A DNA stretch of 64,000 bases, from the NCBI RefSeq assembly GCF_026965535.1, contig NZ_CP114039.1, positions 7,907,461 to 7,971,460 on the forward strand, given 5' to 3'. A program made the position numbers and the translations under genes. Shown piece by piece: positions 26,665 through 47,183 of the stretch. Under the pieces are notes generated by a model. The model worked only from the letters and a program-made list of their open reading frames with translations. It was not told the DNA's origin and made no database searches. Every line of letters starts with the position of its first letter. Position 1 is the stretch's first letter. Source of the DNA: Corallococcus sp. NCRR (lineage in GTDB: Bacteria; Myxococcota; Myxococcia; Myxococcales; Myxococcaceae).

Positions 26665-27849
26665 TCACCCCGCCGGCTCGGCGGCGCCCTCGGGCTCTGG
26701 CTCCTCCGGCCCCTCCACGGTGCGCTCCAACGTGCGAGCGAGCGCGGCCCGGGCCTCCTCCGCCTCCTCGAAGGGCTCATCACTCCCGGCCCGCGCCGGA
26801 GGAGGCACCGTCGCGTCCAGTTCCTCCGGATGCAGGCGGAACCACTTCGCGACGAGCATCACCTCCTGGGCCTCCTGCGCGCGGAGGCCAATCGCCTCCG
26901 GCTCCGGCACGTCGAAGATGGCCCGCACGCGCGCGTCCAGCGCCGCCTGCTCGTCCGGCGTCCGGGGCGTGGGCACCTCCGCGCGGATCCGTCCCCGCCT
27001 GAGCACGTACGTGCGGTCCTCCCCGCCGTGCCCGCGCGCCGTGTAGATCAACGACAGCCGCCGCAGCGTGCGCCCCAGCTCGACGATCCACGCCTGCACG
27101 TTCTCCAGCCGCTCCGCGCGGTCGCGCAGCTCCGCCGCGTATTCGAACTGGAGCCGCCGCGCCGCCATCGCCATGCGCTCGCGGAGGATGACGAGCGGCC
27201 GGTCCGACTCGCCGTTGAGGAACGCCCGGGCCAGCGCGACCTGTGCCAGGTACTCCGCCGTCGTGCACCCGCTCGCGCACGGCGACAGACAGCGCGCCGT
27301 CTGCCCGCGCATGCACCGCGGGTCATCCTTCAGGGGGAAGAGCTGGATCTGATCCGCCAGCCGCATGGGCGTCTCGGACGGGCAGTCGCGCAGCTCCAGC
27401 AAATCATTCACCGCGCGCACCACGTCCGCCATGGTGTGCCGGCCATGGAAGGGCCCGAAGTACTCCGCGCTCCCGCCGCCGCCGGGCTGCCTCACCACGC
27501 GCAGCCGGGGCACGGCCTCGCGCGTGAGCTGGAGGAAGCAGTGCGCGCGGTCGCGCTTGTGCTCCACGTTGTAGAGGGGCCGGTGGCTCTTGATGAGGCG
27601 GAACTCATGCAGCAGCGCCGCGAACTCGCTGGCCGTGTACTCCCACTCCACCTGGTGCGCCTGGGCGACGATCTCCCAGGCCTTCTCGCCCTCGTCCGCG
27701 CGGAAGTACGACAACAGCCGCGTGCGCACCCGCACGGACTTGCCCACGTAGAGCAGCTCTCCAGCGGGGCCGAAGAACCGGTACACGCCGGGCCGGTTCT
27801 CCGCGCTCGCGCGGACGTGACTCAGGAGGGTGGCGACGCGCGGGTCCAT
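26665..27849 (-). CDS. GIY-YIG nuclease, UvrC-homologue (Cho-like) with UVR motif and an acidic C-terminal extension
   Basis: GIY-YIG GVYRFFGPAGELLYVGKSVRVRTRLLSYF; UvrC-like Cys cluster; UVR-like EYAAELRDRAERLENV; ATG at 27849. Confidence 0.7.
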   Translation of the reverse strand: MDPRVATLLSHVRASAENRPGVYRFFGPAGELLYVGKSVRVRTRLLSYFRADEGEKAWEIVAQAHQVEWEYTASEFAALLHEFRLIKSHRPLYNVEHKRDRAHCFLQLTREAVPRLRVVRQPGGGGSAEYFGPFHGRHTMADVVRAVNDLLELRDCPSETPMRLADQIQLFPLKDDPRCMRGQTARCLSPCASGCTTAEYLAQVALARAFLNGESDRPLVILRERMAMAARRLQFEYAAELRDRAERLENVQAWIVELGRTLRRLSLIYTARGHGGEDRTYVLRRGRIRAEVPTPRTPDEQAALDARVRAIFDVPEPEAIGLRAQEAQEVMLVAKWFRLHPEELDATVPPPARAGSDEPFEEAEEARAALARTLERTVEGPEEPEPEGAAEPAG

Positions 27850-27972
27850 GCGGTGAAGGGGCCCGAAACCGGGGCACCGCAGGCTAACCCGCCACGTCCC
27901 TGCGCACCGCCGTCCGCGCACGGCCCGTCACAACCCGGCCGGAGAGCGGCCAGCGGGCCACGCGCCCGGACT

Positions 27973-29244
<1,272 letters not shown>

Positions 29245-29376
29245 CTACCTGCACCTGGGGGCGGGGGGTGGGAAGGCGGCATTTCCGGGGCGGCCCGGCG
29301 GTTACATTGGGTCCTTCCGTTACCGATTCACCGCGCGTCTTGGGTCGCCGCGCCATTTCCGTTACAAGCCGCCGCC

Positions 29377-30975
29377 ATGTTCAACGTCATCAACGTCTCC
29401 AAGGCCTATGGGCCCAAGAAGCTGTTCGAGGAGGTCAACGTCGCCTTCTCGCCGGGCCGCCGCTACGGCCTGACCGGCCCGAACGGGGCCGGCAAGTCCA
29501 CGTTCATGAAGATCCTCGCGGGAGACGAGGAGCAGGACACGGGCGAGATCATCCGCCCGCGCAAGCTGGGCATCCTGCGCCAGGACCACTTCCGCTACGA
29601 GAACGACCGCGTCATCGACGTGGTGTTGATGGGCAACCGCCACCTGTGGGCGGCGATGGACGAGAAGAACAAGCTGCTCGCCAAGTCGGACATCACCGAG
29701 GAGGACGGCAACCGGCTGGGTGAGCTGGAAGGCGTCATCGCGGAAGAGGACGGCTATTCGGCGGAGAGCGACGCGGCCACGCTGCTGGCCGGTCTGGGCA
29801 TCGAGGAGTCCTTCCACGAAGAGCCCATGCGCCAGCTGACGGGCGGCCTGAAGCTGCGCGTGCTGCTCGCGCAGGCGCTGTTCGGCAAGCCGGACGGGCT
29901 GCTGCTCGACGAGCCCACGAACAACCTGGATATCGACTCCATCCGCTGGCTGGAGAACTTCCTCCACGTGTACGAGGGCGTGCTGATCACCATCAGCCAC
30001 GACCGGCACTTCCTGAACAGCATCTGCACGCACATCGCGGACATCGATTACGAGACCATCATCCAGTACACGGGTGGTTACGACGACATGGTCCGGCAGA
30101 AGTCGCAGCTGCGCACCCGGGTCGAGTCCGAGACGGCGGAGAAGAAGAAGAAGATCGCCCAGCTGCAGGACTTCGTGGCGCGCTTCCACGCCGGTACGCG
30201 CGCGTCGCAGGTGCAGAGCCGCATCAAGCAGATCGACAAGCTGAAGACGGAGGACCTGAAGCGCTCGAACATCGCGCGGCCGTTCATCCGGTTCGACCAG
30301 AAGGTGGTCAGCGGGCGGCAGACGCTGATGTTCGAGGGGCTGAAGAAGTCCTTCGACGGGCAGCAGGTCATCAAGCCGTTCACGGGCCTGGTGTGCAAGG
30401 GCGAGCGCATCTGCGTGATTGGCCGCAACGCGGTGGGTAAGTCCACGCTGGTGAAGATGCTGGCCAACCAGTTGGAGCCGGACGCGGGGACCATCACCTG
30501 GGGCCACCAGGCGACGGTGGGTTACCTGCCGCAGGACCACCACGGCGTCATCCACAAGGGCACGACGTGCTTCGGCTACCTCCGGGAGATCAGCGAGAAG
30601 CTGACGAACGAGGAGATTTCCGGCGTGTTGGGCCGGATGCTCTTCTCGGGTGAGGAGCGGATGAAGGCGACGGACACGCTCTCCGGTGGTGAGACGGTGC
30701 GCGTGCTGTTGTCCAAGCTGATGATCATGCAGGACAACGTGCTGATCCTGGACGAGCCGACGAACCACCTGGACCTGGAGTCCATCGCGGCGCTGGCGGA
30801 AGGCCTGTCCAAGTTCGAAGGCACGGTCATCTGCGTGACCCACGACCAGGAGCTCATCTCCGAGGTCGCGACCCGCATCTGGAGCCTGGAGGCGGGCAAG
30901 GAAGTGCTCGACTTCAACGGCCCCTACTCCGAGTTCATGGAGAAGCACGCGGACGCGGCGCTCAAGCGCCGGTAG
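29377..30975 (+). CDS. ABC-F family ATPase (YbiT/EttA-like; two ABC domains, no TMD)
   Basis: Two Walker A (GPNGAGKST, GRNAVGKST), two ABC signatures (LTGGLKLR, LSGGETVR), two Walker B (LLLDEPTNNLD, LILDEPTNHLD); ATG at 29377. Confidence 0.9.
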   Translation: MFNVINVSKAYGPKKLFEEVNVAFSPGRRYGLTGPNGAGKSTFMKILAGDEEQDTGEIIRPRKLGILRQDHFRYENDRVIDVVLMGNRHLWAAMDEKNKLLAKSDITEEDGNRLGELEGVIAEEDGYSAESDAATLLAGLGIEESFHEEPMRQLTGGLKLRVLLAQALFGKPDGLLLDEPTNNLDIDSIRWLENFLHVYEGVLITISHDRHFLNSICTHIADIDYETIIQYTGGYDDMVRQKSQLRTRVESETAEKKKKIAQLQDFVARFHAGTRASQVQSRIKQIDKLKTEDLKRSNIARPFIRFDQKVVSGRQTLMFEGLKKSFDGQQVIKPFTGLVCKGERICVIGRNAVGKSTLVKMLANQLEPDAGTITWGHQATVGYLPQDHHGVIHKGTTCFGYLREISEKLTNEEISGVLGRMLFSGEERMKATDTLSGGETVRVLLSKLMIMQDNVLILDEPTNHLDLESIAALAEGLSKFEGTVICVTHDQELISEVATRIWSLEAGKEVLDFNGPYSEFMEKHADAALKRR

Positions 30976-31002
30976 TCCTTCGCTACTTCAGGCAGTGCCC
31001 AC

Positions 31003-31045
31003 GCCGCCCGTTTCCGGTCCTCCGGAAGCGAGGCGGCGTTTTCGT
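31003..31045 (+). terminator. Putative intrinsic terminator downstream of the ABC-F gene at the island boundary
   Basis: Imperfect inverted repeat gccgcccgtttccgg-tcct-ccggaagcgaggcggc followed by GTTTTCGTG. Confidence 0.4.
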
Positions 31046-31149
31046 GCAGGTGTCAATCACCCTCACGGGGGATGCAATCGCAGCGAGGAGTGCGCCAGAA
31101 CCTGGGGTGCCAGGTCGTCCCACCCATGACGACCCGGGGGGGCACCTCC

Positions 31150-34100
31150 ATGACTCCGAACGACTCGGTCCTGCTGAAAGAGCTTCAGCAGCAACGCACC
31201 CGGTTGCTGGATCTGAGCGCAACCAACCGACTCCTCCATTTCAAGCACACGGCCCGGACGTCGCTGCGCATTGTGGATGAATTGCCAGGTGTCGTCTTCG
31301 AGCGCCTGAGCAACCACCGCGCGCTCACGTTCCTGCCGGTGATGCCGCCGGCGCATGCCTCCAAGGAAGAGGAGGACGTCGACCCCGCCGCCGCGACGGT
31401 GGTGTTTTCGATGACGACGGAGGAAGCCCCCAGCAAGGACGCCCGTCAGAATCTGGTGCTTCAACAGGCGAAGAAGTTGGGCATTGATACCCGGTATGAG
31501 CTGCCCAAGGCGCTCCCGGCAGAGAGCGGCAGCAATCCTCGCAAGCACCAGGACCGCCACCTCCAGACGTTGTACTTCCCGGAGGATCTGGAGAGCCACT
31601 TGCACCGTATCCAGGGCCTCGCGCAAACGGCCATCCAGGAGACCGGAGCCAACCTGCTCCACTTCGTCTTCGGGTTCCTGCGCTGGTACGAGTCTGGCGA
31701 CACGCGGCAGGAGAAGCCTCGCAGCGCTCCGCTCGTGCTCATGCCGGTGAGCCTCAAGCGCGGTCAGGCGCACCCGGAGACGCAGGTCCACGCCTACGAA
31801 GTGGACTACAACGAAGGCGAGTCCATCGAAACGAACCTCACGCTCCAGGAGAAATTGCGGCAGGAATTCGGCATCACGCTGCCGGCCTTCTCCGCGGACG
31901 AGGGCCTGGAGGCGTACTTCGACAAGGTGACGACGCTGCTCAAGGGACTGCGTCCTGGCTGGAGCCTGGAGCGGCAGGTGACCCTGACGCTGCTGTCCTT
32001 CGGGCGGCTCCTGATGTGGCGGGACCTGGAGCCTACCCGCTGGCCCCAGAACAGTCCCATGCTGGCGAACCCGCTCGTCCGAACACTGATGGGAGGACAG
32101 GCGCAGGCGAACGAACCTGGTGGAGGTGGCGGGGGCAGTCGGGAACGCCGGAGCGAGGTCTACGACCTGGATTCACCCGAGGTAAATCCTCCGCCGCTCA
32201 TCACGGACGCCGACAGCAGCCAGCACAGTGTGTTGGTGGACGTACTCCGAGGCGAAAACCTGGTGGTCCAGGGGCCGCCTGGCACCGGGAAATCACAGAC
32301 CATCACCAACCTCATTGGCGCGGCGCTGGCGGCGGGCAAGACCGTGCTGTTCGTCACGCAGAAGCTGGCGGCGCTGGAGGTCGTCTCGCGCCGCCTCCAG
32401 CAGGCGGGGCTCGGCGAGTTCTGCCTGGAGTTGCATAGCCACAAGACCCAGAAACAGCAGTTCATGGAGGATCTGCGTCGACGACTCAACCTGGATACGA
32501 GCGCGAGCGCCCCTCGCCCTCTCACCGAACAGGTCTTGAGCGCGGCAGGCATCCTGCGCGCGCACACCGAGCGAATGCACAAGCCTTTCGGGACGCTCGG
32601 CATGTCACCGCACGACGTGTTCTGGAAGGTCAGTCGTGCGGAGTCAGAGTTGGGGGAAGCGGTCGTGGAGTTGGAGGGCCTCCGCTTCGAGGGCGCTGAA
32701 GGTATGTCCCCCCTTGCGCTGGCGGAGGTTCGCAACGCGGTTCGGAACCTCGCGGCGCAACTGGGGGATGTTCGCCGCGTCGCGCCCATCCTCAGTGCCC
32801 ACCCATGGGCGGGTGTAACGAACGATGCGCTGACCGACAAGGACCGCCAGACACTCATTCAACGGATCGCCACCTGGGAAGAGTCCGCCCTACTTCTAGA
32901 GAAGGCGCTGGCGACCTTCACCGTCCGCACGGGCGTCACGCCCAGGTCGAGCGCGCTCGCGGTGGATGCGCTGGTCTCCAACATCCGGGTCCTGCCGCAG
33001 CTTCCGGAGGGTGCTCCCGCAACGCTGGTCCCTGCCCTACTCGATTCGACGCAGCGCCAGGGATTACGAGTCCTGCTCGATGCCATCGAAGCGGTCCAGA
33101 AGCAGTGGGCGGGGTTGGAGGCGGGCTGGCGAGCCCAGGAGGACCTGACCGTGACCGCGCTGCGCGACGCGGAAGCCGTCCTCGACATTACCCTGCGCCT
33201 GCTCTCGCCTGACACCACGCTCGTCACCCTGACGCGCGCGCACGAAGCGGTGGAAGCAGCGGCCCGAGGCCTGGGGCAGGCTCGCCGGTTCGTTGCCGAA
33301 GTGGCCTTGCGCCTGGAGGTCGACGTCACGCTCTGGACGCCTCAACAAATCCAGATTTTCGCCCGCGTCGTCGAGGCCATGGCCGCCCTGGACGACACCA
33401 CTTTGGAGTGGCGGGACCCACGCTGGCTTGAGCGCGAAGCCGAGGAGGCACTTCGGAAAGCCGGGGTGACGTGCACGGAATTGAAAGAGCAGGGCCGGGC
33501 GCTCGCGGTGCGCTTCATGCCCGAGCTTGTCCCTCCCCTCGCAACACTCAAGTCCCATGCCGTCGCGGTTTCGACCGCGCCATTCATCCCCTGGTTCTCG
33601 GGCGCATGGCGTGCCGCGCGGCGGGACTTCCAGGCCATGGCTCATGGTGTCCGTCCAACAAAGCCCGTACTCATCCAGGGATACAACGACCTGCTGGCAC
33701 ATTACGCGGCACGGGAGCGGTTCCAAGAGGACGCGACCCTGAAAGAGACCCTGGGTGCCCGCTTCCAGGGAATCGAGACGCGTTTCGATCGAATCCTCTC
33801 GTGGTTGGACACATACCGGAACATCGACGCATTGCTCCTCCCAATGGGCGAGCGAGGTCTGGAGCTGCGCCGCGCGGTGTTGGAGCGTTCCCCGAGCCAG
33901 TGGCGAGATGCCCTGGCGAGGGTCCGCGCGAAGAGTGATGAACTTCCCCAGGTCCGCGACGTGAGTACCTCCGTGCAAGAGGCCTCGACGCGCATGGGGC
34001 TGCCGCACGCGCCCTGGAACACCGAGCCCTGCGGAAAGGCCCAGGACAGTCTCGACGCCCTGCTGAAGCACCTGGGTAAGGTTCTGCATTGGGCACGGAA

Positions 34101-36348
34101 GGGAGATGCCCCGCCGTCCCTGCCCCTCTCTCAACTCCAGGGACAGTTGCGCAGGGTGCGCGAGGCGTGCGGAGCCGCGGAGCGGCTGGAAGCTCACGCT
34201 CCCGCAGCGGCCCTGCCGGGGGTGGCCTACCAGGGCCGGAAAACCTCACTCGCGGGTCCCCGAAGCGTTCTTCGCCATGTCGATGCCCTCCTGGCGGCGC
34301 CGCTGCCGGAAGGTCTGGCGGAGTGGCTGCTGCGAGAGGACACGCCACGAAGGCACGCGGACCTGCATGCGGCCGCGAACGAGTTGGAGACCGGGCTCAC
34401 TGCCTATAGACAGTCCGCCGCCCAAGCCTGGGAACTGGGAAGGATGGCCCCGGGCACCTGGGAGGAACTCGCCACCGAGTCCCCGCTCCAATCGACGGTC
34501 TTGCGCCTGCGTCAGGCCCGAAGCCAGTCCGCGACGCTTCCGGCCTGGTGCGCGTATCAACGGCAGCGGCGCGCCGTCGCGCGAGCGCGGAGCACCGCCG
34601 GGTTCCTGGAGCGCGTCGACACACGCCCCGGTCTGGAGCCGGAACAGCTGGTCTCCGCCTTCGACGCTGTCTTCTTCCGCTCTCTGGCGGAAGCCATCCT
34701 GCGAGACCAACCAGAGCTCGATCAATTCACTGGCGCCATCCATGCATCCCAGCGAGAGGAGTTCGCACGCTTGGACACGCATTGCATCGAAAAGCAGGGC
34801 CGCTACCTGGCGCGTCAACTCAGCCAGCGTCCGGTTCCTCCCGGCGTGTCCTCGGCGAAGGTAGCGGGCATGACGGAGACTCATCTTCTGAGGCACGAGC
34901 TGGGAAAGAAGCAGCGGCACCTCCCCATCCGTGAACTGGTGGCACGCGCCGGCAGTGCGCTCCAGACGCTGATGCCGTGTTTCATGATGGGTCCGCAGTC
35001 TGTCGCCCAGTACCTGCCCGCCGGACAGCTGACCTTCGACCTGGTGGTGATGGACGAGGCCAGTCAGATGCGCCCCGAAGATGCCCTGGGAGCCATTGCC
35101 CGAGGAAAGCAGTTGGTAGTGGTGGGCGACCCGGAGCAACTCCCTCCCACCAGCTTCTTCGCCCAGATGGAGCAAGAGGACACAGACTCCAACGACGAGA
35201 CAGGACACGAGGCCGAGGGCCCGTCCTTCCTGGAGGATTCAGAGAGCATCCTCACGGCGGCGGCGGAGCGGTTCCCCATGCGCATGCTGCGCTGGCATTA
35301 CCGTTCCCGGCACCCCTCACTGATCGCCTTCAGCAATCGCGAGTTCTACAACGGTGACCTCATCACCTTCCCTGCACCGGGTGAGCAACTGGAAGGGTTG
35401 GGACTGCGCTTCCATAAGGTGGACGGAGGACTGTACGAGTCCAACCGCAACGTCCCCGAGGCTCGTGAGGTGCTCGCGAAGGTGAAAGAGCACGCGCGTA
35501 CACACCCCGAGCAAAGCCTGTTGGTCGTCACGTTGAACTCGAAGCAGCGGGATCTCATCGACGATCTGGTGACGGCCGAGGAGAAGAACGACGCGGACCT
35601 CCGGGCCTTCCTGGCGAGGTGGGAGAAGTCACCCATGCCTTTCGACGTGAAGAACCTGGAGAACGTCCAGGGCGACGAGCGCGACGCCATCTTCGTGTCG
35701 GTCACGTTCGGTCCGGACAAGAACGATCGCTTCCGGATGAACTTCGGACCCATCAACCAGGCGGACGGATACCGCCGGTTGAACGTCCTTTTCACGCGGG
35801 CGCGCTGCGCACTCACGGTGTTCGCGTCCTTCGACCCCTCGGACCTCAAGGTCCAGGAGAGCAGTCCCCGTGGGATGCGCGTCCTGCAACGGTACCTGTC
35901 CGAAGCCAAGGGAGAGAAGGTTGCGCACGGCGTGGGGAGCGGCCGTCCACCAGACTCCGACTTCGAAATCGCCGTCGCGAAGGCGCTCGCGGCGCGGGGC
36001 TTCGAGGTGGTTCCGCAGGTAGGTGTCGCGGGCTACTTCATCGACATGGCCCTCCGGCATCCCCAGCAATCGGGCCGATACATCCTCGGCGTCGAGTGTG
36101 ACGGCGAGCGGTACCACTCGTCGCGCTCCGCACGGGACCGGGATCGGCTCCGGGACCAGGTGTTGAAAGGCCTGGGGTGGAAGCTTCACCGCATCTGGTC
36201 CACGGATTGGTTCCGCTCGCCTTCAGAAGAGGTCGCCCGGATCGTCGCGCACGTTGAGGAACTCCTTCGGGAGGAGGCGGCTGGGTTGCCAGCCGTGGCG
36301 CGAGAAGAGTCCCCTGTGGATCAGCCAATGCGCGCCGTCAGCGCCTGA
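31150..36348 (+). CDS. DUF4011 / SF1 (Upf1-like) helicase / DUF3320 (Vsr/DUF559-like nuclease) giant protein; Hhe-like defence helicase-nuclease
   Basis: N-terminal DUF4011 (LLKELQQQRTRLLDLSATNRLLHFKH); Walker A VVQGPPGTGKSQTI; DEAS LVVMDEASQM; VVVGDPEQLPP; motif VI LNVLFTRARCALTVF; C-terminal Vsr-like IAVAKALAARGFEV...ILGVECDGERYHSS...RDRLRDQVLKGLGWKLHRIW; modestly lower GC than flanks. Confidence 0.82.
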   Translation: MTPNDSVLLKELQQQRTRLLDLSATNRLLHFKHTARTSLRIVDELPGVVFERLSNHRALTFLPVMPPAHASKEEEDVDPAAATVVFSMTTEEAPSKDARQNLVLQQAKKLGIDTRYELPKALPAESGSNPRKHQDRHLQTLYFPEDLESHLHRIQGLAQTAIQETGANLLHFVFGFLRWYESGDTRQEKPRSAPLVLMPVSLKRGQAHPETQVHAYEVDYNEGESIETNLTLQEKLRQEFGITLPAFSADEGLEAYFDKVTTLLKGLRPGWSLERQVTLTLLSFGRLLMWRDLEPTRWPQNSPMLANPLVRTLMGGQAQANEPGGGGGGSRERRSEVYDLDSPEVNPPPLITDADSSQHSVLVDVLRGENLVVQGPPGTGKSQTITNLIGAALAAGKTVLFVTQKLAALEVVSRRLQQAGLGEFCLELHSHKTQKQQFMEDLRRRLNLDTSASAPRPLTEQVLSAAGILRAHTERMHKPFGTLGMSPHDVFWKVSRAESELGEAVVELEGLRFEGAEGMSPLALAEVRNAVRNLAAQLGDVRRVAPILSAHPWAGVTNDALTDKDRQTLIQRIATWEESALLLEKALATFTVRTGVTPRSSALAVDALVSNIRVLPQLPEGAPATLVPALLDSTQRQGLRVLLDAIEAVQKQWAGLEAGWRAQEDLTVTALRDAEAVLDITLRLLSPDTTLVTLTRAHEAVEAAARGLGQARRFVAEVALRLEVDVTLWTPQQIQIFARVVEAMAALDDTTLEWRDPRWLEREAEEALRKAGVTCTELKEQGRALAVRFMPELVPPLATLKSHAVAVSTAPFIPWFSGAWRAARRDFQAMAHGVRPTKPVLIQGYNDLLAHYAARERFQEDATLKETLGARFQGIETRFDRILSWLDTYRNIDALLLPMGERGLELRRAVLERSPSQWRDALARVRAKSDELPQVRDVSTSVQEASTRMGLPHAPWNTEPCGKAQDSLDALLKHLGKVLHWARKGDAPPSLPLSQLQGQLRRVREACGAAERLEAHAPAAALPGVAYQGRKTSLAGPRSVLRHVDALLAAPLPEGLAEWLLREDTPRRHADLHAAANELETGLTAYRQSAAQAWELGRMAPGTWEELATESPLQSTVLRLRQARSQSATLPAWCAYQRQRRAVARARSTAGFLERVDTRPGLEPEQLVSAFDAVFFRSLAEAILRDQPELDQFTGAIHASQREEFARLDTHCIEKQGRYLARQLSQRPVPPGVSSAKVAGMTETHLLRHELGKKQRHLPIRELVARAGSALQTLMPCFMMGPQSVAQYLPAGQLTFDLVVMDEASQMRPEDALGAIARGKQLVVVGDPEQLPPTSFFAQMEQEDTDSNDETGHEAEGPSFLEDSESILTAAAERFPMRMLRWHYRSRHPSLIAFSNREFYNGDLITFPAPGEQLEGLGLRFHKVDGGLYESNRNVPEAREVLAKVKEHARTHPEQSLLVVTLNSKQRDLIDDLVTAEEKNDADLRAFLARWEKSPMPFDVKNLENVQGDERDAIFVSVTFGPDKNDRFRMNFGPINQADGYRRLNVLFTRARCALTVFASFDPSDLKVQESSPRGMRVLQRYLSEAKGEKVAHGVGSGRPPDSDFEIAVAKALAARGFEVVPQVGVAGYFIDMALRHPQQSGRYILGVECDGERYHSSRSARDRDRLRDQVLKGLGWKLHRIWSTDWFRSPSEEVARIVAHVEELLREEAAGLPAVAREESPVDQPMRAVSA

Positions 36349-36361
36349 ACAGGAAATATCC

Positions 36362-37927
36362 ATGACAACGATCATCGCCATTGGCCTGGGCGTTTTGGGC
36401 CTTTTGCTCCTGGGCTTGTTGCTGCGGACGCGAAGCCAACTCAAGGCGGTCCAGGCACGATTCAAGCCCATCCTGGACCTGGAGGCCGAACGACGCCGGC
36501 TCGCGGAGGAGTTGACGCAAGCCCGCACTGACGCAACCGCCGCGATGGCTGCGGAACAGAAGCGGGTCCAGGATGAGTTGGCGAAGTCCCGGAGCGAAGC
36601 GGACAATGCGCTGGCTGCGGAGCGGAAGCGGGTGGAAACCGAGCTCGCCCGCGCCAAGGCGGACGTAGAGCAGGCCATCTCCGCGGAGCAGGGCCGGGCG
36701 AAGGCGGAGTTGAACCGGATCCGCGAAGAAACGAACCGGACGACGCAAAGCGCGACGCGCGCCATGGAGGAGGCGGAAGCACGTCGAAAGCAGGCGAACA
36801 CCGAGCGGACCAGCCTGGAAACAGGCCTTGCCCGATTGAAAGCCGAATTGAAGGCATTGGAGGAAGAGGAGGTTCTGCTCACCTTCGGCTTCTACAAACC
36901 GGTGTACGCGCTGGCGTCGGTCAAGGAGTACGAGGACCGCTTGGAGAGGATCCGCGAATCGCAGAAGCAGATGCTGAAGAACAAGGAAGCAGCCACATGC
37001 TCCATTCAGTGGGAGGTGAATGGGAGCAAGGCGGAAGGCAAGAAGCAGATTGACCGGACCTTGAAGCTGATGCTCCGGGCGTTCAATGGCGAGGCGGACG
37101 CATGTGTGGCGAAGGTCTCCTACAAGAACGTGAAGGCCATGGAGACGCGTATCGAGAAGGCAGCTGCCGCCATCAATGGCCTCGCGGAGATCCAGCAGTG
37201 CGTCATTGCCAGGCGCTACGTCAAGCTCAAGGTCGAAGAGTTGATGCTCGCGTATGAGTACGAGGAGAAGGTGCAGCAGGAGCGTGACGAGCAGCGCCGG
37301 ATCCGGGAGCAGATGCGTGAGGAGGAGGCCGCCCAACGCGAACTGGAAAAGGCGAAACTGGAAGCGGAGCGCGAAGCGAAGCGCGACGCGGAGGCCCTGG
37401 CCAAGGCGAAAGCGGACTACGAGCAGGCCAAAGGCTCAGAGCAGCAGAAGTTGATGGAGCGCATCGCGGAGCTGGAGCGCCGTGTGGCGGAGGACCTGGA
37501 GAAGCAGCGGGCCATCTCCCAGGCCCAACTCACCCGGACAGGGCACGTCTACGTCATCTCCAACATCGGCTCGTTCGGGGAGGGCGTGTTCAAGATGGGC
37601 ATGACCCGCCGGCTGGTGCCCCAGGACCGCATCGACGAACTGGGAGACGCCTCGGTGCCGTTCGAGTTCGACGTTCACGCCATCATCCGGACCTCGGACG
37701 CCCCAGCCCTGGAAAACGCCCTGCACAAGGCCTTCGCGAACCGGCGCGTCAACCGCATCAACGAGCGCAAGGAGTTCTTCCGCGTCAACCTGGATGAGAT
37801 CGCGGAAGCGGTCCGCAAGCACCACGGCGAGTTTGAATTGACCCGGGTGGCCGAAGCTGCGGAATACCGGAAGACATTGGCACTCCAAGAGGAGGAACAG
37901 GGTCGACCCGGTGAGCGGGCCGCATGA
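36362..37927 (+). CDS. Membrane-anchored coiled-coil protein with DUF4041 and a C-terminal T5orf172 (GIY-YIG-superfamily) domain
   Basis: N-terminal TM MTTIIAIGLGVLGLLLLGLLL; long E/R/A/K-rich coiled coils; DUF4041 (LLTFGFYKPVYALASVKEYEDRLERIRESQ...); T5orf172 (GHVYVISNIGSFGEGVFKMGMTRRLVPQDRIDELGDASVPFEFDVHAIIRTSDAPALENALHKAF); starts 14 nt after the helicase stop. Confidence 0.78.
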   Translation: MTTIIAIGLGVLGLLLLGLLLRTRSQLKAVQARFKPILDLEAERRRLAEELTQARTDATAAMAAEQKRVQDELAKSRSEADNALAAERKRVETELARAKADVEQAISAEQGRAKAELNRIREETNRTTQSATRAMEEAEARRKQANTERTSLETGLARLKAELKALEEEEVLLTFGFYKPVYALASVKEYEDRLERIRESQKQMLKNKEAATCSIQWEVNGSKAEGKKQIDRTLKLMLRAFNGEADACVAKVSYKNVKAMETRIEKAAAAINGLAEIQQCVIARRYVKLKVEELMLAYEYEEKVQQERDEQRRIREQMREEEAAQRELEKAKLEAEREAKRDAEALAKAKADYEQAKGSEQQKLMERIAELERRVAEDLEKQRAISQAQLTRTGHVYVISNIGSFGEGVFKMGMTRRLVPQDRIDELGDASVPFEFDVHAIIRTSDAPALENALHKAFANRRVNRINERKEFFRVNLDEIAEAVRKHHGEFELTRVAEAAEYRKTLALQEEEQGRPGERAA

Positions 37928-39701
37928 ATTCGGCCCCGCCTACACTTCTGGTAGCGTTCACCTCTCAATGAGTTCCAACCCGTTTTCGTTTCCTGGGGAT
38001 GCGCTCCCCGACGCTGTCATTTCTGCCTCTAAAACTCGGAAAATCGCGTTCCTGGTAGGCTCTCCCTTGTCGACACAGGAAAGAGCCGACGCGCCCCAGG
38101 TTCCTGGCGTGAGCGCGATGGTGGCTCTGATCCGCGAGCACCTTCCGGCCGAAGCCCAAGCAAAATTTGACGCAGACCGACTGCATAACCAATCCAACGA
38201 GTACCAATGGGCCATGCGCTTCCTGCAGGGCCGAAGCAACAAAACGGCCGCCGAGAAAGTCGTACGAGAAGCTGTCCTCCGGGCACGGCTGGATCGACAA
38301 AAGGATGGCGCTGCCACGGACGAACAGCTTGACCAAGACTATCGTGGATGGGCGCTGCCGCCTGCGACGGAGCACCTCGGCAAACTCCTGGTGGAGAGGG
38401 CCGACAAGTTTGGTCCTGTCTTGACTACAAACTTCGACCCCCTCATCTCCGCGTCAATCAAGATGGCTGGCGGGAATTTCCATCGCACCCTCGTAGTCAA
38501 CGACAGTCCCTTCGGGCATACGACGCCGTCCTCCAACTCGACACACATCATTCATCTGCACGGGTACTGGCACAATTCGCCCACGCTACATACCAGCGCA
38601 CAGATCGCTCGTGATCGTGATCAGGTCGCCGCAGAACTCGTTCAGATCCTTCAAAACCACACACTCATTGTCGTCGGATACGGCGGCTGGGATGACATCT
38701 TCACCAAGACGCTCTCAGCGATCAACGCCAACCGGCACAATGACGTCGACATTCTCTGGGCATTCTACGAAACCGAAGCAGACCATCTGCTTGAGGCTCG
38801 CTATCAGCATCTATTCAGCAAGGTCACCAACTTAAGAGGCAATACGGGCCTTCGCTGCTACAGCGGAATCAATTGCCACAAATTCTTCCCTGAACTGCGG
38901 AGGCAGTTTGACGCATCCATTGCCCCGCAGACGCTCCCTCCCAGCACAATCCGACCGCCACCGCAGCCATCCTCCACAAGGGCCCCAAGCTCCAAAGCAT
39001 CTGAGCCAGTCGCCTCGACATCCTCAAGTGCGGCGAAGCCACCCGCGCCTGTGCCCCCCGTGTCGGACCGTCCCGCCTCCCCTTCCATTCCGAAAACAGA
39101 CGGCTCGGGCAGCCCTCCGAAATCGGGCTCCAGGAGGATCCTTACGTTTGCGGCAGCCGCGCTGATTGCCGGCGGGATGGCAGCAGTCTGGCCATCCCCG
39201 AGCAAAGACGTCAGCAATGACGTCTTCGTCGTTCAGACTCCGCGCAATCTGAGGCCTGTCCAGCCGCAGCCTCCTGCGGCTTACACTCCGTTCCCATCTC
39301 CCGCCGGTGGAACACTCCGGACCGCCCGCCAGCAACACCAGGTCGTACCTGCTTCGGACGCCGAACGTGGGACTCGCGTCTCGCAGCTTCCCAGGGGCCG
39401 TTACGCCTTTGTCCCGATGAGCGCTGTTCCCACCTATAGCGCGGACACATCCATCTATGGCCCGATCCAGGAGGGAATCGAGCTTCATCGCGCCCTCTCG
39501 GATGGGTCCCTGTACCTCGTGGGCTACGCGGATGCTCCAACCATCACGGCCCTGGGATATCCGAACCCTGCTCCCATCGTCATCACCCCCACGCCCAGCA
39601 ACAGAAGGACGCAGGTCGCGAGCATTCCCGTGACCCGGATGGCCACCGCGGAAGTTCGCATGGACAAAGGCACCCGCGTGTTGGTCCTCCACCTCAACTA
39701 A
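37911..39701 (+). CDS. SIR2_2-family (defence-type sirtuin-like) protein with Pro/Ser-rich linker, single TM helix and C-terminal domain; GTG start at 37911 overlaps the upstream gene (alternative ATG 37968)
   Basis: SIR2_2 motifs KIAFLVGSPLS, VLTTNFDPLISAS, HIIHLHGYWHN, LIVVGYGGWDDIF; low-complexity PPQPSSTRAPSSKAS... linker; TM ILTFAAAALIAGGMAAVWP; about 190-aa C-terminal region. Confidence 0.72.
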   Translation: MSGPHEFGPAYTSGSVHLSMSSNPFSFPGDALPDAVISASKTRKIAFLVGSPLSTQERADAPQVPGVSAMVALIREHLPAEAQAKFDADRLHNQSNEYQWAMRFLQGRSNKTAAEKVVREAVLRARLDRQKDGAATDEQLDQDYRGWALPPATEHLGKLLVERADKFGPVLTTNFDPLISASIKMAGGNFHRTLVVNDSPFGHTTPSSNSTHIIHLHGYWHNSPTLHTSAQIARDRDQVAAELVQILQNHTLIVVGYGGWDDIFTKTLSAINANRHNDVDILWAFYETEADHLLEARYQHLFSKVTNLRGNTGLRCYSGINCHKFFPELRRQFDASIAPQTLPPSTIRPPPQPSSTRAPSSKASEPVASTSSSAAKPPAPVPPVSDRPASPSIPKTDGSGSPPKSGSRRILTFAAAALIAGGMAAVWPSPSKDVSNDVFVVQTPRNLRPVQPQPPAAYTPFPSPAGGTLRTARQQHQVVPASDAERGTRVSQLPRGRYAFVPMSAVPTYSADTSIYGPIQEGIELHRALSDGSLYLVGYADAPTITALGYPNPAPIVITPTPSNRRTQVASIPVTRMATAEVRMDKGTRVLVLHLN

Positions 39702-39707
39702 CAATCA

Positions 39708-40370
39708 ATGACACTCAACAATCGAATCCTCATTCTTGGGCTGACGTCGGTTATCCTGCTAGCGGGCTGTGGGCCCGAGGACTTCAGCCCGGGCCCCATC
39801 ACGGAAGACCCGCCACTCGAAGAAATTTGTACTTCGGCGAACTGCGCAGGCTGCTGCGATCCAACCACGAACAAGTGCGTCGAAGTTCGCACCAACGATG
39901 CATGCGGAGTCACCGGCACCCAATGCACGAAGTGCGCGACCGGGACCATCTGCCATCCATCACAGCAGCAGTGCTACACCCCCACCATCCGCACGAAGAT
40001 CCAGCCTCTGCGCGCCCAGATCGCGCCGCAGGATCCTGCCGACAACAGTGATTGGGATGTGGATGGCTCGCCGCCGGATGTCGTGATCAAGCTGTCCTGC
40101 CCCAACGCGCAGCCTGCGCCCCCATCCGAGGAAGTTGAAAGCTTCACTCCCACCTGGACGAAGGGGGCATGCGACGTCCTGAGCACCGATCTGCTTTCGG
40201 CCCCCATCCAGTTCAGCGTCATCGACGTCGACACCCTCTTTGACGACCCGATTGCGTCGGTGCAGTACCAGGTGACTCGAGCCGACACTGACCGTGGCGT
40301 CCTGGAGTTCACGGGGTCCGGTGCGTTGCTCTCCGTGGCTTTCCAGGTCACCACCTACTACGCCGAATAG
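39708..40370 (+). CDS. Cys-rich lipoprotein (paralogue of 47184..47801)
   Basis: Lipobox ILLAGCGP; Cys-rich N-terminal module (CTSANCAGCCDPTTNKCVEV...CGVTGTQCTKCATGTICH...CYTP); shared motifs DWDVDGSPPDVVI and VQYQVTRAD with the 47184 gene; starts 7 nt after the SIR2 gene. Confidence 0.58.
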   Translation: MTLNNRILILGLTSVILLAGCGPEDFSPGPITEDPPLEEICTSANCAGCCDPTTNKCVEVRTNDACGVTGTQCTKCATGTICHPSQQQCYTPTIRTKIQPLRAQIAPQDPADNSDWDVDGSPPDVVIKLSCPNAQPAPPSEEVESFTPTWTKGACDVLSTDLLSAPIQFSVIDVDTLFDDPIASVQYQVTRADTDRGVLEFTGSGALLSVAFQVTTYYAE

Positions 40371-41488
40371 ACGGATACCTCGATCCGCCGCCAGCGTTGC
40401 TGGATGCTGGCGGCCATGTGCTTGCGGAGGTTTGCCATCCAGCGCTGACACGTCCTGGTCGCATCCTGCTCCCCTGCATTGAAGCCCAGTTCCAGGTCGA
40501 GGGCCCAATGCAGACTGGTGATGGCCTCGAGCCGCAGCTCATCCGGGGCCTTGAGCCGCGAGCGGGCCGCTGCCTCGAAGCATGGGTCCAGGAGGAGTGC
40601 CGCGATCGTGAGTTGAGGGCACGCCCCGCTTCGCCGGTCGATCAGCTCCCACAGTGCCGCCAGTGGCTCCGGACGCGCTCCGCCAATCAGCATCGCGACA
40701 ACGGCCAGCTTGTGGAAGATGGGATGTGTCTCACGGAAGAGCGCGAGGATTTCAGCATCCACGCCAGGACTCATCTCCACCGCTGCTTCCACGTGCAGCA
40801 CCAGCTCCTTACGGTCCAACCATCGGAGCGCGCGCGGGCCGGGGTCGAGAAGGAGGGCATCCATGAACGATGGGTACCCGCCATACTCCTGATAATAGCG
40901 CACACCTGCATTGCCCAGTCCCGCCCGCGCGTAGGTGCGAGGCCGGTCCGACAGAACGCCCGCGACACACGCTTCCTCCATGTCACAGCAAGACAACTCC
41001 GCGCCTCGGAGATTGGCGCAGCGCAGGTCCGCCTTCATCAATGTCGCTGCGGTCAAACGGGCGCCCTGAAGCCGGACGCGGCGGAATGAGCCGCGCACCA
41101 GGTTCGAAGCCGTGAGGGTCGCCCCTTCCATGGAGGCATCGTCCCAGCAGGTGCCCATCGCGACACACGCCATCAAACTGGCGCGCTCCAATCGCGCCCA
41201 GGACAGCGAGGCACCTGACAACGTGGCGAAGTCGAGCCGCGCCTCTTGGAGCCCGCAGTCGTCCAGACGGGCGCCATCGAGCCGTACATGGACGAGATCC
41301 GCGCCCGGTAGCTCTTCTTGTGTGAGGTCGATGCCTCGGAGATCCCCCACTTGGGGCCCCAGTGCATCCGCTCCCGGAAAGCCCTTGAGGACTTCACGCC
41401 AGGGCCCCTGGAATCCCGAGGCGAGCAGTCGCTCGCGCCGATGCAAGCCATCAGGTGTGAGCCAGCGCTCTGTCAGTTCGGGCAGCAT
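40358..41488 (-). CDS. Pentapeptide-repeat protein
   Basis: Many tandem A(D/N)LxG-type pentapeptides (ADLVHVRLDGARLDDCGLQEARLDFATLSGASLSWARLERASL...; ADLRCANLRGAELSCCDMEEA). Confidence 0.8.
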   Translation of the reverse strand: MLPELTERWLTPDGLHRRERLLASGFQGPWREVLKGFPGADALGPQVGDLRGIDLTQEELPGADLVHVRLDGARLDDCGLQEARLDFATLSGASLSWARLERASLMACVAMGTCWDDASMEGATLTASNLVRGSFRRVRLQGARLTAATLMKADLRCANLRGAELSCCDMEEACVAGVLSDRPRTYARAGLGNAGVRYYQEYGGYPSFMDALLLDPGPRALRWLDRKELVLHVEAAVEMSPGVDAEILALFRETHPIFHKLAVVAMLIGGARPEPLAALWELIDRRSGACPQLTIAALLLDPCFEAAARSRLKAPDELRLEAITSLHWALDLELGFNAGEQDATRTCQRWMANLRKHMAASIQQRWRRIEVSVYSA

Positions 41489-41591
41489 GGCCGGGCTATA
41501 ACACCTGGAACCAGAGGCGTTCGATGCCCTCCGGAACGTTCGCTATTCCTGATGCCGGGAGCACGGGTACCAGTGGGTATGATGCAAGGCC

Positions 41592-43043
41592 ATGTACCCG
41601 ATTCGCCGCCTTCTCGTTCGTGGACCGTGGTTGTTCGACCTCCGACCGCATCGGCTCATCGCCTTCCACGGAGCTGAAGGCATGCGCCGGGAGGTAGAAG
41701 GAGACGTGCCGGAGTACTCGTCCGCGCCCGTAGTGCTCGCCGCGCTCAATGAGTCAACGGACGTCTGGGTGGGAAGCGGGGATCGGCGTGTCTTCTCCGT
41801 GAGCACCGATGTGAGCGCATCCGTTCAGGCCTTTCCGAGGGAATGCTTCGATCTCACCTCCGATGGGAACCGGCTCATTGGAACGATGGTGGACGGCGCC
41901 CTCAAGCTGACCACCGTCTTCACGACCGATGGGTCCGGGCAGCGTTGGGAGCCCATGACTTTGCCCAAGCCCGTGTCCACCACGCACGGGTATGGCTATT
42001 CCGAGGGACGCCCTCCCCGTCAGTCCCCAGATGGGGCGTTCCTCGACACGAGCCCCTTTGGCATCACCGTCGTGGAGAAGGGCCGGGGCCGCGTCTACGT
42101 GCTCCGCTCGGGGGCGGCTCAGCCGGAGGGCGCGCTCCAGGTGGAACCGGGCCATGAGCAGGACATCTGGCGGGCCCTGGCCACTTCCCAGGGTGTGCTT
42201 CTCCTGCTCGTCATCGACTACCGGCAGACGGTGCTTCTTCACTTCGCGCTCGACGGCACCCTACTCGGCTCCCTCCCGTCCAACGATGAGGATGAGGACG
42301 AAGATGACGTTGAACTGACCTGGGGCGGTAAAGGGGTGTGCGTTCTCGACTCGGAGCGGGCGCTCCTCTTCGTGCAGGACAAGACCCTCCTGGTATCCCT
42401 GCCCGGGCTCCAGGTGCTTGAGACGCTCGCGGGGGAGTGGCCCCAATTCGTGTCCGTGGCGCCCGCTGGGCCAAACCGGTGGTGGGTGGGGTCCGAGGAC
42501 AGTGACGCGCTCTTCCTGCTCACCGCCGAGCCCGGACAGCCCTTGCGCCTCGACACCTCGAACCGTCCGGTGAGCCCGGGCGCGCCGCTCATGCACGTGG
42601 GCTACAAGACACCCACGCTCCACTGGACCGAACACACCTCGGCACCGCTGACTGTGTCCGCGCCCGTGTCCGAGACGTGGCGGGCGGTGGTGCGCAATGA
42701 CGGGACCGCGTGCGAGGCGGTACGGATCCGCGTGTCCGGGGTGCTCATCGGTGCTCGTGTGGTGGACGTGAGCGTGCGGTATCGCGGTCAGCCACTCCCG
42801 ATGGAGGAGGAGCACCGCGTGAACGTCGTGGGGGTTACCGGCGGCCTGGAGGCAGGGGCCACCGCGGAGCTGGAGATGACCTTCAAGCCCCGGAGCGAGG
42901 GCTCAGGACCGCTGACCATCACCGTCGAGCCATGCTCCTGGCAGTCTCAGGGCAAAGAGTGGCAGTGGGACAAAGAGCCGTCTCGCGTCCTCGTGGTGAC
43001 GGGCCATTCGGCATCCGCTCAATTCCTGCTCACGGTGGAGTAG
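41592..43043 (+). CDS. Hypothetical protein (possible beta-propeller-like N-terminal half plus Ig-like C-terminal)
   Basis: 483-aa ORF with ATG at 41592, consistent coding bias, no recognisable catalytic motif. Confidence 0.5.
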   Translation: MYPIRRLLVRGPWLFDLRPHRLIAFHGAEGMRREVEGDVPEYSSAPVVLAALNESTDVWVGSGDRRVFSVSTDVSASVQAFPRECFDLTSDGNRLIGTMVDGALKLTTVFTTDGSGQRWEPMTLPKPVSTTHGYGYSEGRPPRQSPDGAFLDTSPFGITVVEKGRGRVYVLRSGAAQPEGALQVEPGHEQDIWRALATSQGVLLLLVIDYRQTVLLHFALDGTLLGSLPSNDEDEDEDDVELTWGGKGVCVLDSERALLFVQDKTLLVSLPGLQVLETLAGEWPQFVSVAPAGPNRWWVGSEDSDALFLLTAEPGQPLRLDTSNRPVSPGAPLMHVGYKTPTLHWTEHTSAPLTVSAPVSETWRAVVRNDGTACEAVRIRVSGVLIGARVVDVSVRYRGQPLPMEEEHRVNVVGVTGGLEAGATAELEMTFKPRSEGSGPLTITVEPCSWQSQGKEWQWDKEPSRVLVVTGHSASAQFLLTVE

Positions 43044-44199
43044 CGCGAACCTTCTCGGGCTCGGGTGCGGCGCTCATCCTCCAGAGCAGGGCGCCTCCCC
43101 CAATGACGACTCCCAGGCCCACTGCCGCCGCGAGGATCCATCCTCGTCCCAGGCGGGGCCGTGCCTGGCTCTCCGGGCCGTCCGGAGCCGGGGCAATGAC
43201 GCTCGGATCGTCGCTCGGTGAGACCTGTTGGACGAGTTGGGCCACCTGTTTCGGTGTCACCGGCTCCCTCACCGAACGGATGAAGGCCTCCAGGTCCTTC
43301 CGGAACGCGTGGCAGTCCGGATACCGCTCGTCCCGATCCTTCGCGAGCGCCCGGGCGAGGATGGCTCGTAGGGCATCGGGCAGGTCTGGCCGGTGCTGCT
43401 CGGCAGGGACGATGGGCTCAGTCGCGACGACCCGAAACAAGTCCCAGTCGGACGTGGACTCAAAGGGCCTACGCGTGGTGAGCAGTTCGTAGAGCACCAG
43501 ACCCAGCGCGTAGACGTCCGCCCGCCGGTCCAACGGCCTGCCCATGACCTCCTCGGACGCCATGTACCTGTACTTGCCTAGGTTGGGCATGGGGTGTTCG
43601 GGTGTCCACCGGATCCGGAAATGCTCGATGCCGAAGTCCACCACCTTCGTCGTCCCCTGGCGCGACAGGAGGATGTTGTACGGCCGGATGCAGCGGTGGA
43701 TGAGCCGCAGCGGCTGGTTCGTCTCGGGGTCGGTGAGGTCGTGGGCATAGGCGAGCCCCTCGCAAGCTTGCGAGATGATGCGCGCGCACAGCGTCGCTGG
43801 CAGGGTCATCCGCTGGGCCACCACGTGATTGATCACCCCGCGCAGGCTGGGCCCATCAACGTGCTCTCTCGCGAGAAAGTACGTGCCTTCCGCCTCACCT
43901 ACATCAAAGACCTTCCCGAGGTGCGGGTGCGTGAGCCGGGCGGCGTCCCTCGCCGTGTCGAGGAACATCTCCGGGACATCCACCTGCTCCGCCATGTCCG
44001 AGCGGAGGCACTGGAGCACCAGCGTCTTCTCGACGCCCCGCGGGCCGGCGGCCGTGGCCAGATGGTCCTCGATGATGCCTTCGGAGAGCAGGCGGATGCG
44101 CTGGTATTTGCCGACTTGGGATGTCACGGGGCGTATGAATAGCAGACCATGACCCGCTACCGCTTCCTTGGGCTTCTGCTGGCGCTGCTGCCTCTCCAT
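43030..44199 (-). CDS. Degenerate Ser/Thr protein kinase (pseudokinase) with C-terminal TM anchor
   Basis: Kinase fold recognisable (DFG present: VVDFGIE; C-lobe YALGLVLYELL) but no Gly-loop, beta3 Lys absent (VLQCLR), catalytic loop HRCIRPYN instead of HRDLKPxN, SEE instead of APE; TM GWILAAAVGLGVVIGGGALLW; ATG at 44199 (alternative GTG at 44127); the track ORF upstream extension is antisense. Confidence 0.6.
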   Translation of the reverse strand: MERQQRQQKPKEAVAGHGLLFIRPVTSQVGKYQRIRLLSEGIIEDHLATAAGPRGVEKTLVLQCLRSDMAEQVDVPEMFLDTARDAARLTHPHLGKVFDVGEAEGTYFLAREHVDGPSLRGVINHVVAQRMTLPATLCARIISQACEGLAYAHDLTDPETNQPLRLIHRCIRPYNILLSRQGTTKVVDFGIEHFRIRWTPEHPMPNLGKYRYMASEEVMGRPLDRRADVYALGLVLYELLTTRRPFESTSDWDLFRVVATEPIVPAEQHRPDLPDALRAILARALAKDRDERYPDCHAFRKDLEAFIRSVREPVTPKQVAQLVQQVSPSDDPSVIAPAPDGPESQARPRLGRGWILAAAVGLGVVIGGGALLWRMSAAPEPEKVRATPP

Positions 44200-47150: not shown

Positions 47151-47183
47151 AGGTCCTGAAACGGGTTAGCGTTCACCGCGCTC

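Follow-up and report, generated by a model that had tools for sequence, protein, structure and literature searches.

Hhe, which Gao et al. in 2020 reportedly described as a single-gene system, joins in one polypeptide and in this order a DUF4011 domain, a superfamily 1B (SF1B) helicase that is split by an insert, and a Vsr-like nuclease with the residues ECDG..H..DRDR (Escherichia coli WP_032200272, 1911 amino acids, aa). The same order is found in the product of a gene at 31150-36348 (+ strand) of a stretch of 64,000 nucleotides (nt) of Corallococcus sp. NCRR DNA (contig NZ_CP114039.1; this whole stretch is hereafter the window). We refer to this product of 1732 aa as the Hhe-like protein, and our analyses lead us to believe that it is probably an autonomous single-polypeptide anti-phage helicase-nuclease of the Hhe/ProA (DUF4011) superfamily.

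The single hhe gene of E. coli acts against the phages lambda, T3, T7 and PhiV-1, and the nuclease-site mutation E1731A abolishes defence (bioRxiv 10.1101/2022.06.16.496414). In the E. coli allele that we retrieved, the glutamate of the ECDG motif is E1727 and residue 1731 is an alanine, and the corresponding glutamate of a Klebsiella plasmid Hhe is E1719; the published E1731 is probably the ECDG glutamate. A phage knockout screen identified the class II DNA-metabolism genes of T7 (1.4-2, 2.8) as candidate Hhe triggers, one Bas63 gene was found to be toxic only in the presence of hhe, and phage NAD+-synthesis genes partly counter hhe (bioRxiv 10.1101/2024.10.10.617714). An anti-hhe gene is carried by another phage.

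Domain architecture of the Hhe-like protein

The reading frame on the + strand is open from 31072 to 36348. Translation from ATG 31150, upstream of which a G-rich ribosome-binding stretch is conserved, gives a protein of the same length as the orthologue in C. coralloides (93% identity, also 1732 aa). An in-frame ATG at 31126 was rejected as the start because indels in the orthologues break the frame there, as determined from the upstream alignment of seven loci. The open reading frame (ORF) has GC contents of 0.71, 0.46 and 0.80 at codon positions 1, 2 and 3 (GC1/2/3) and homologues that number in the thousands, and it is a genuine gene and not a high-GC artefact. A search of public assemblies for a protein identical in sequence yielded no match.

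The DUF4011 domain (31201-31857, aa 18-236; Pfam PF13195, 116.3 bits) lies at the N-terminus and differs among congeners. It is followed by helicase motif I, the Walker A sequence GPPGTGKS (32272-32295, aa 375-382), and by an insert of ~850 aa in RecA1 (32470-35019, aa 441-1290), situated between motifs Ia and II. Beyond the insert are motif II, the Walker B sequence DEASQ (35053-35067, aa 1302-1306), RecA2 with motifs IV-VI (35269-35826, aa 1374-1559; Pfam AAA_12, 53 bits) and the Vsr-like PD-(D/E)XK nuclease (35962-36252, aa 1605-1701; E1649-C-D-G, H1656, D1663-R-D). Pfam also matched AAA_30/AAA_11 at residues 356-416 and 1295-1335 and REase_MTES_1575 at residues 1605-1701 (125.7 bits); DUF559 reached 18 bits, under its cut-off of 20.6. 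No other part of the protein evolves as fast as the insert (54-66% identity in other members of its clade, described below). A search at E<=1e-3 located it, in an unchanged position, in 2946 cluster representatives, most of them with 23-30% identity.

The catalytic residues are conserved throughout an alignment of 21 homologues with 35-93% identity. Invariant in all of them are motifs I (G375-S382), II (D1302-Q1306), III (G1326/D1327/Q1330), IV (W1382-S1386, WHYRS), V (Q1507-D1512, QGDERD) and VI (R1542-R1550, RRLNVLFTR), and the nuclease residues E1649-C-D-G1652, H1656 and D1663-R-D1665. A first-pass annotation of the window had predicted here a protein of about 1730 aa with DUF4011, an Upf1-like helicase and a Vsr-like nuclease, with its superfamily 1 motifs and its nuclease intact. 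The frame, the length and the Pfam matches agree with the first of these predictions, and the invariant residues and Vsr-like fold bear out the second, so that an SF1B-type motor and a Vsr-like nuclease, as judged from sequence, are both intact within one polypeptide.

By sequence, the nearest solved structures are those of Sen1, IGHMBP2 and Dna2, with E values of 1e-7 to 1e-4 over the motif regions only. This likeness is one of helicase motifs and is very weak, since these proteins have neither DUF4011 nor the giant RecA1 insert. Dna2 likewise joins an SF1B motor to a PD-(D/E)XK nuclease, but there the nuclease is N-terminal, whereas in the Hhe-like protein it is C-terminal and Vsr-like. Our searches found no solved structure for any member of the Hhe/ProA superfamily, and no solved structural relative of the predicted DUF4011 model (predicted local distance difference test score, pLDDT, 79). 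A 2024 preprint puts Gao_Hhe among HEPN-domain systems; the Hhe-like protein had no Pfam match to HEPN, and no search for HEPN motifs was made beyond Pfam.

Placement within the Hhe/ProA superfamily

The NCBIfam profile Hhe_antiphage (NF042953) matched the Hhe-like protein with 1425 bits in a single stretch, in which residues 12-1711 correspond to profile positions 2-1689 of 1797. This is below the curated equivalog cut-off of 2000 bits, and the score for ProA (NF058533), 1123.3 bits in two stretches, is similarly below its cut-off of 1500 bits. The PADLOC model for Hhe (PDLC02194) scored 941.5 bits (E 2.4e-283), with its best stretch covering part of the profile, and was only second best to PDC-S37, which scored 1257.9 bits. 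However, the best PDC-S37 stretch aligned residues 1004-1714 with positions 652-1350 of 1550, which is the C-terminal part only, and we attribute the top score of this model to the conservation of the C-terminal half. The first-pass annotation had likened the gene to Hhe and had proposed comparison with the PADLOC model. The likeness holds as a colinear NCBIfam match and a highly significant PADLOC match, which set the protein apart from a housekeeping Upf1/Dna2-like helicase lacking any resemblance to Hhe, but does not extend to an equivalog score, to the C-terminal tail or to the leading PADLOC model.

Control proteins were used to calibrate these scores. A Halomonas protein scored 2405 bits with NCBIfam Hhe and 2017 bits end to end with PADLOC Hhe, and a Chitinophaga protein scored 1637.6 bits with ProA and 2090 bits with PDC-S37, both end to end. 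Since the Chitinophaga control passes both ProA and PDC-S37, we consider these to be one family. The proteins of loci L021 and L034 were both assigned to PDC-S37 by PADLOC, and L021, which was scanned with NCBIfam, passes the ProA cut-off (NF058533). Our literature search found neither a paper defining ProA nor any text on PDC-S37.

Alignments and architecture also favour the Hhe side of the superfamily. By BLASTP, a Pseudomonas protein for which Hhe is the best PADLOC model aligned with the Hhe-like protein from end to end (residues 12-1690, 35% identity); the alignment with E. coli Hhe was also colinear (residues 126-1705, 34% identity), and colinear homology with Hhe extends across ~95% of the length of the Hhe-like protein. 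Proteins of the ProA/PDC-S37 family, in comparison, aligned at both ends only, although they have DUF4011, the helicase core and the MTES_1575 nuclease in common with it. These proteins have ~625-650 aa between motifs I and II, with an insert of ~630 aa, and ~270-290 aa after ECDG, which include a C-terminal DUF3320. The Hhe-like protein has neither the short insert nor a Pfam match to DUF3320. Its spacing of 927 aa is instead that of Hhe proteins (~927-939 aa for the class and 929-939 aa at Hhe-type loci; 933 in the Pseudomonas protein, 939 in the Halomonas protein and ~940 in Hhe of both K. pneumoniae and E. coli), and in a neighbor-joining (NJ) tree it falls on the long-insert Hhe side.

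The Hhe-like protein departs from Hhe at its two ends. Only 84 aa follow its ECDG motif, as opposed to 154-200 aa in Hhe, and the C-terminal tail of Hhe (profile positions ~1690-1797, the last ~108) is missing, as is the N-terminal extension. A short tail is present in 74 of its 120 best homologues. On the strength of the scores, alignments and architecture, we regard the protein as a divergent variant, with a long insert and no tail, that would form a third branch of the Hhe/ProA superfamily, Hhe-like in architecture and not an Hhe equivalog. The DUF4011 helicase-nuclease superfamily would then comprise at least three architectural branches, of which Hhe and ProA/PDC-S37 would be two and a widespread long-insert form without the tail the third. 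There is in addition a fourth class, whose tail is long and whose insert, at 822-911 aa, is intermediate in size. Because the third branch is below both naming thresholds, its members carry only the NCBI label "DUF4011 domain-containing protein", and PADLOC would name them PDC-S37.

Linkage to SNIPE, island character and competing explanations

The Hhe-like gene is the first of four co-directional genes. It is followed, all on the + strand, by a homologue of SNIPE (36362-37927), a SIR2_2 protein gene (37968-39701) and a lipoprotein gene (39708-40370), and the first-pass annotation had regarded it as the head of an operon with two further effector-like genes. SNIPE, the renamed PD-lambda-1, is a nuclease anchored in the membrane; it cuts phage DNA at injection, and its single gene suffices in E. 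coli (Saxton et al., Nature 2026, PMC13190303). To determine which of these genes travel together we used a forward set of 80 Hhe-like loci, one per species, from bacteria and archaea. Searches by tblastn with the SNIPE, SIR2 and lipoprotein sequences, even at E<1, detected SNIPE in Myxococcaceae loci only, with none at the 77 loci outside this family, and the SIR2 and lipoprotein pair in Corallococcus loci only. Clustering of the flanking ORFs of 79 diverse loci revealed no recurrent co-directional partner in the wider family; the plasmid and E. coli hhe genes are solitary amid insertion sequence (IS) elements and other defence genes. A small divergent gene is located just upstream, on the opposite strand, at 10 of the 79 loci, all of another subclass (L040, L043, L044, L056 and six others), and a "conserved small hypothetical gene" adjoins the core DUF4011 gene of Pseudomonas aeruginosa (PMC10250203).

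An Hhe-like gene followed by a co-directional SNIPE gene was found at seven loci, which represent four contexts: the ABC-F-linked locus of Corallococcus (the window, L001, L085 and L086) and those of L002, L003 and L084. The gap between the two genes is 13 nt in five of the seven loci and 18 and 30 nt in the other two. A leader of ~100 nt (31051-31149, +; TGTCAAT...), which contains the G-rich ribosome-binding stretch and was delineated from the upstream alignment of the seven loci, is kept in six of them, including L002 and L003 with their different contexts. The first-pass annotation had suggested a phylogeny of the helicase core to see whether such copies group together, and in the NJ tree all seven co-directional SNIPE-linked copies do form one Myxococcaceae clade, with 56-93% identity. 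The sister group of this clade holds P0080, which is without SNIPE, and L009.

The last of these, a Myxococcaceae metagenome-assembled genome (MAG) locus (L009, 1-21243), has an Hhe-like protein of 41% identity, and SNIPE lies downstream of it, on the opposite strand and convergent. L009 is a larger defence island with a TIR protein, PLD-ResIII and helicase-DUF3427 ORFs that are perhaps one gene split in two, and a superfamily 1 helicase with an RNase H-like domain.

Viewed from the SNIPE side, the pairing is equally restricted. No Hhe-like gene was found within 8 kb of SNIPE relatives with 58-67% identity (M. xanthus, Archangium violaceum and a third genome) or, within the sequence available, at 34 metagenomic SNIPE loci; the pairing was seen in 0 of 38 other SNIPE contexts. 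The SIR2 and lipoprotein pair recurs in Myxococcus faecalis (L095/L096, 8001-10519; 35% and 37% identity), where it lies behind an HSDR_N protein in an unrelated context that has neither Hhe nor SNIPE. From the forward, reverse and SIR2 tests we conclude that the array is composite: the Hhe-like/SNIPE cassette is specific to the clade, and SIR2 and the lipoprotein make up a module apart from it. The idea that the two effector-like genes are accessories of Hhe did not hold up, as the first is a SNIPE (504.6 bits with PADLOC PD-Lambda-1) of a kind that works alone in E. coli, and the other belongs to the module that occurs in M. faecalis. The array neighbours are best read as independent layers of immunity and not as subunits of an Hhe system.

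The islet lies between two core genes, ABC-F and BrkB, and the content of this interval varies among Corallococcus species. The GC3 values of its four genes are, in order, 0.80, 0.83, 0.68 and 0.76, compared to 0.95-0.97 for tgt and ABC-F. Comparison of Corallococcus species gives identities of 96-100% for the flanks, 69-93% for the Hhe-like protein, 86-94% for SNIPE and 46-78% for SIR2. Allele histories are discordant in C. exiguus, whose Hhe-like protein is 71% yet whose SNIPE is 93% identical. In other members of the clade the motif I region and the nuclease retain 82-96% identity, and DUF4011 and the insert 54-72%. An IS66 and an rve-type transposase/integrase gene are located near the islet in the orthologous loci L086 and L085; scans for tRNAs, Rfam families and repeats found no tRNA, RNA family or flanking direct repeat to mark an integration site. 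Relatives of the Hhe-like protein occur on 498 plasmid records, annotated as anti-phage Hhe, and no close M. xanthus orthologue was among its best 120 matches. This is the pattern of accessory defence genes that occupy a variable hotspot of the chromosome, their enzymatic cores being conserved and their surfaces for sensing or regulation diversifying. As divergence is focused in DUF4011 and the insert, these two are the probable site of phage sensing or regulation in Hhe-type proteins. The solitary SNIPE genes of M. xanthus (L087-L090) and a solitary Hhe-like gene of a Myxococcaceae MAG (L094) are each within ~3 kb of a large catalase gene, which hints at a shared variable hotspot in Myxococcaceae.

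An alternative to autonomy is that the Hhe-like protein and SNIPE, possibly with SIR2, constitute one obligate multi-gene system in which, for example, phage DNA would be cut on entry by membrane-bound SNIPE, and the Hhe-like helicase-nuclease would load on the ends so created to degrade the genome. The retention of gene order and of gaps of 13-30 nt at seven loci in four contexts, the leader in six of them, the single clade of linked copies and the presence of SNIPE beside even the distant Hhe-like gene of L009 are all consistent with such a system. However, SNIPE is absent from all 77 Hhe-like loci outside Myxococcaceae, its relatives with 58-70% identity occur alone, it is missing from P0080 in the sister group, and at L009 the two genes converge from opposite strands within a larger island. 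The discordance in C. exiguus also argues against tight co-evolution, and the Hhe and SNIPE families each protect as single genes in E. coli according to the literature. We consider an obligate system unlikely. Slightly less likely again is a genuine two-stage bicistron, in which SNIPE cuts at membrane entry and the free ends load the tail-less helicase-nuclease for processive degradation; if true, this would place restriction-plus-RecBCD logic in one cassette, and the loss of the tail would reflect changed licensing.

Two other explanations seem to us very improbable, and about equally so. If the gene encoded a housekeeping DNA-repair or replication helicase-nuclease (Dna2-/Upf1-like), inherited vertically in Corallococcus and beside defence genes by chance, we would understand why the same ABC-F-linked locus is present in at least three named Corallococcus species, why P. 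aeruginosa has a DUF4011 gene in its core set (PMC10250203) and why Sen1, IGHMBP2 and Dna2 are the nearest solved structures. Yet the Sen1/Dna2 matches are marginal in comparison with the Hhe models (E=0; 941.5 bits for that of PADLOC), the GC3 of the gene is well below that of the core genes, and it diverges far faster than its flanks. Its different genomic contexts in other Myxococcaceae, the lack of a close M. xanthus orthologue among the best 120 matches and the plasmid-borne relatives likewise speak for an accessory gene. The second explanation, that the protein is a ProA/PDC-S37 member and not Hhe-like, follows from the leading PADLOC score, but is contradicted by the restriction of that match to the C-terminal part, the ProA score of 1123 bits against a cut-off of 1500, the BLASTP alignment of two ends only with true members, the spacing of 927 and not ~630 aa, the lack of a DUF3320 tail and the position in the NJ tree.

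The favoured reading, an autonomous anti-phage helicase-nuclease, has its own difficulties. Both curated equivalog thresholds are missed, and since the protein is below them and has 34% identity to E. coli Hhe, we can only infer that the function of the latter applies. Our literature search found no settled mechanism for Hhe itself, the lost C-terminal tail could alter regulation, and the order, gap and leader kept in four contexts exceed what is expected of a random defence-island neighbour, which leaves room for coupling. In addition, as P. aeruginosa has a large DUF4011 gene among its core genes (PMC10250203), some members of the family need not be mobile defence genes.

How an autonomous Hhe-like protein might work can be proposed by analogy with better-known motors, and its biochemical activity, its trigger and the co-transcription of the array are what we infer from such comparisons and from the arrangement of the genes. 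Upf1, Sen1, IGHMBP2 and Dna2 are SF1B motors that translocate 5' to 3'. By this analogy, the Upf1-like motor would move 5' to 3' on nucleic acid and deliver or license the C-terminal Vsr-like endonuclease. Based on E. coli Hhe, the nuclease would cut DNA once phage DNA replication, recombination or metabolism makes a substrate. The likely surfaces for sensing or autoinhibition are those of the fast-evolving DUF4011 and ~850-aa insert, and without the C-terminal tail licensing may differ. The gene would then head a compact, probably co-transcribed defence islet, made up of the Hhe-like and SNIPE bicistron and the separate module of a SIR2 protein with a transmembrane (TM) helix and a lipoprotein. 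Current views of defence islands stand, the arrangement being fairly ordinary apart from one lineage-specific pairing. This lineage-restricted cassette is a natural case in which to ask whether an entry-stage nuclease and an intracellular helicase-nuclease, layered together, act additively or in synergy.

The gene array and its surroundings

The claim of the first-pass annotation that the gene heads an operon survives in part: the four genes form a tight co-directional array, but its modules are separable and the Hhe-like/SNIPE pairing is confined to one Myxococcaceae clade. The genes are separated by gaps of 13, 40 and 6 nt. Upstream, the ABC-F gene (stop at 30975) is closed by a terminator-like hairpin and T-run at 31002-31043 (+), which was read by eye as CGCCGCCCGTTTCCGG-TCCT-CCGGAAGCGAGGCGGCG followed by TTTTCG and was not listed by the consensus terminator scan; it would mark the start of a new transcription unit. 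Terminator-like sites within the array are at the chance level (9 versus 8.1 expected). A scan of the array for sigma-70 consensus promoters found none, so the promoter role of the conserved leader is presumptive. The short gaps, the lack of a terminator excess, the ABC-F hairpin and the leader suggest that the four genes are likely co-transcribed. A 1381-aa ORF at 26830-30975 (+), upstream of the array, is a high-GC artefact that overlies real genes, namely a 418-aa gene and tgt on the - strand and the ABC-F ATPase gene at 29350-30975.

The SNIPE homologue (521 aa), whose start is preceded by AGGAA, has an N-terminal TM helix (aa 1-25) and then a coiled coil, DUF4041 (nt 37064-37231, +; Pfam, 74.5 bits) and a T5orf172/GIY-YIG nuclease (nt 37541-37819, +; Pfam, 65.6 bits). 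Its PADLOC PD-Lambda-1 match extends over profile positions 50-477 of 496, and the residues of its nuclease domain are invariant in 25 homologues. The membrane helix, DUF4041 and C-terminal GIY-YIG (T5orf172) domain are all shared with SNIPE. Unlike E. coli SNIPE and most homologues, which are solitary, it sits directly 3' of the Hhe-like gene under a common leader, an arrangement that in turn distinguishes the Hhe-like gene of this clade from hhe.

The third gene encodes 577 aa, with a cytoplasmic, NADase-like SIR2 domain (TNFD, HLHG), a Pro/Ser-rich linker, a TM helix (aa 390-409) and a C-terminal, outer domain of ~170 aa; SIR2_2 was its only Pfam match (44.8 bits). An alternative start at GTG 37911, which would overlap SNIPE, was set aside in favour of ATG 37968 because the orthologues begin ~40 nt beyond the SNIPE stop. 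The PADLOC models of known SIR2 systems (Thoeris ThsA, DSR, SIR2-HerA and SIR2-pAgo) scored at most 34 bits, confined to the SIR2 region. In contrast to these systems, the protein is without SLOG, the DSR C-terminal region, HerA or a pAgo partner, its SIR2 domain being accompanied by the TM helix, the C-terminal domain and the lipoprotein. The SIR2-TM protein and the lipoprotein may represent an undescribed envelope-linked SIR2 module. A public protein of an unclassified Corallococcus (P0241, 527 aa) is 100% identical to the SIR2 protein over the 91% of the query that aligned and starts 50 residues after the orthologues of 564-580 aa; since this start drops the nucleotide-binding motif FLVGSPLS, it is probably mis-called (window 37968-38117).

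The fourth gene encodes a Cys-rich lipoprotein of 220 aa with the lipobox LLAGC, and a gene of this kind invariably comes after the SIR2 gene. The low-GC3 stretch beyond it (40358-45900) contains genes for a pentapeptide-repeat protein (- strand, with a 13-nt overlap with the lipoprotein gene), a 483-aa protein without a Pfam match and a beta-lactamase-fold protein. Encoded 7 kb downstream (47160-47801, +) is a paralogous lipoprotein, with 37% identity and a weak match to a C2 domain, and a second lipoprotein copy is also present in the orthologous loci of Corallococcus.

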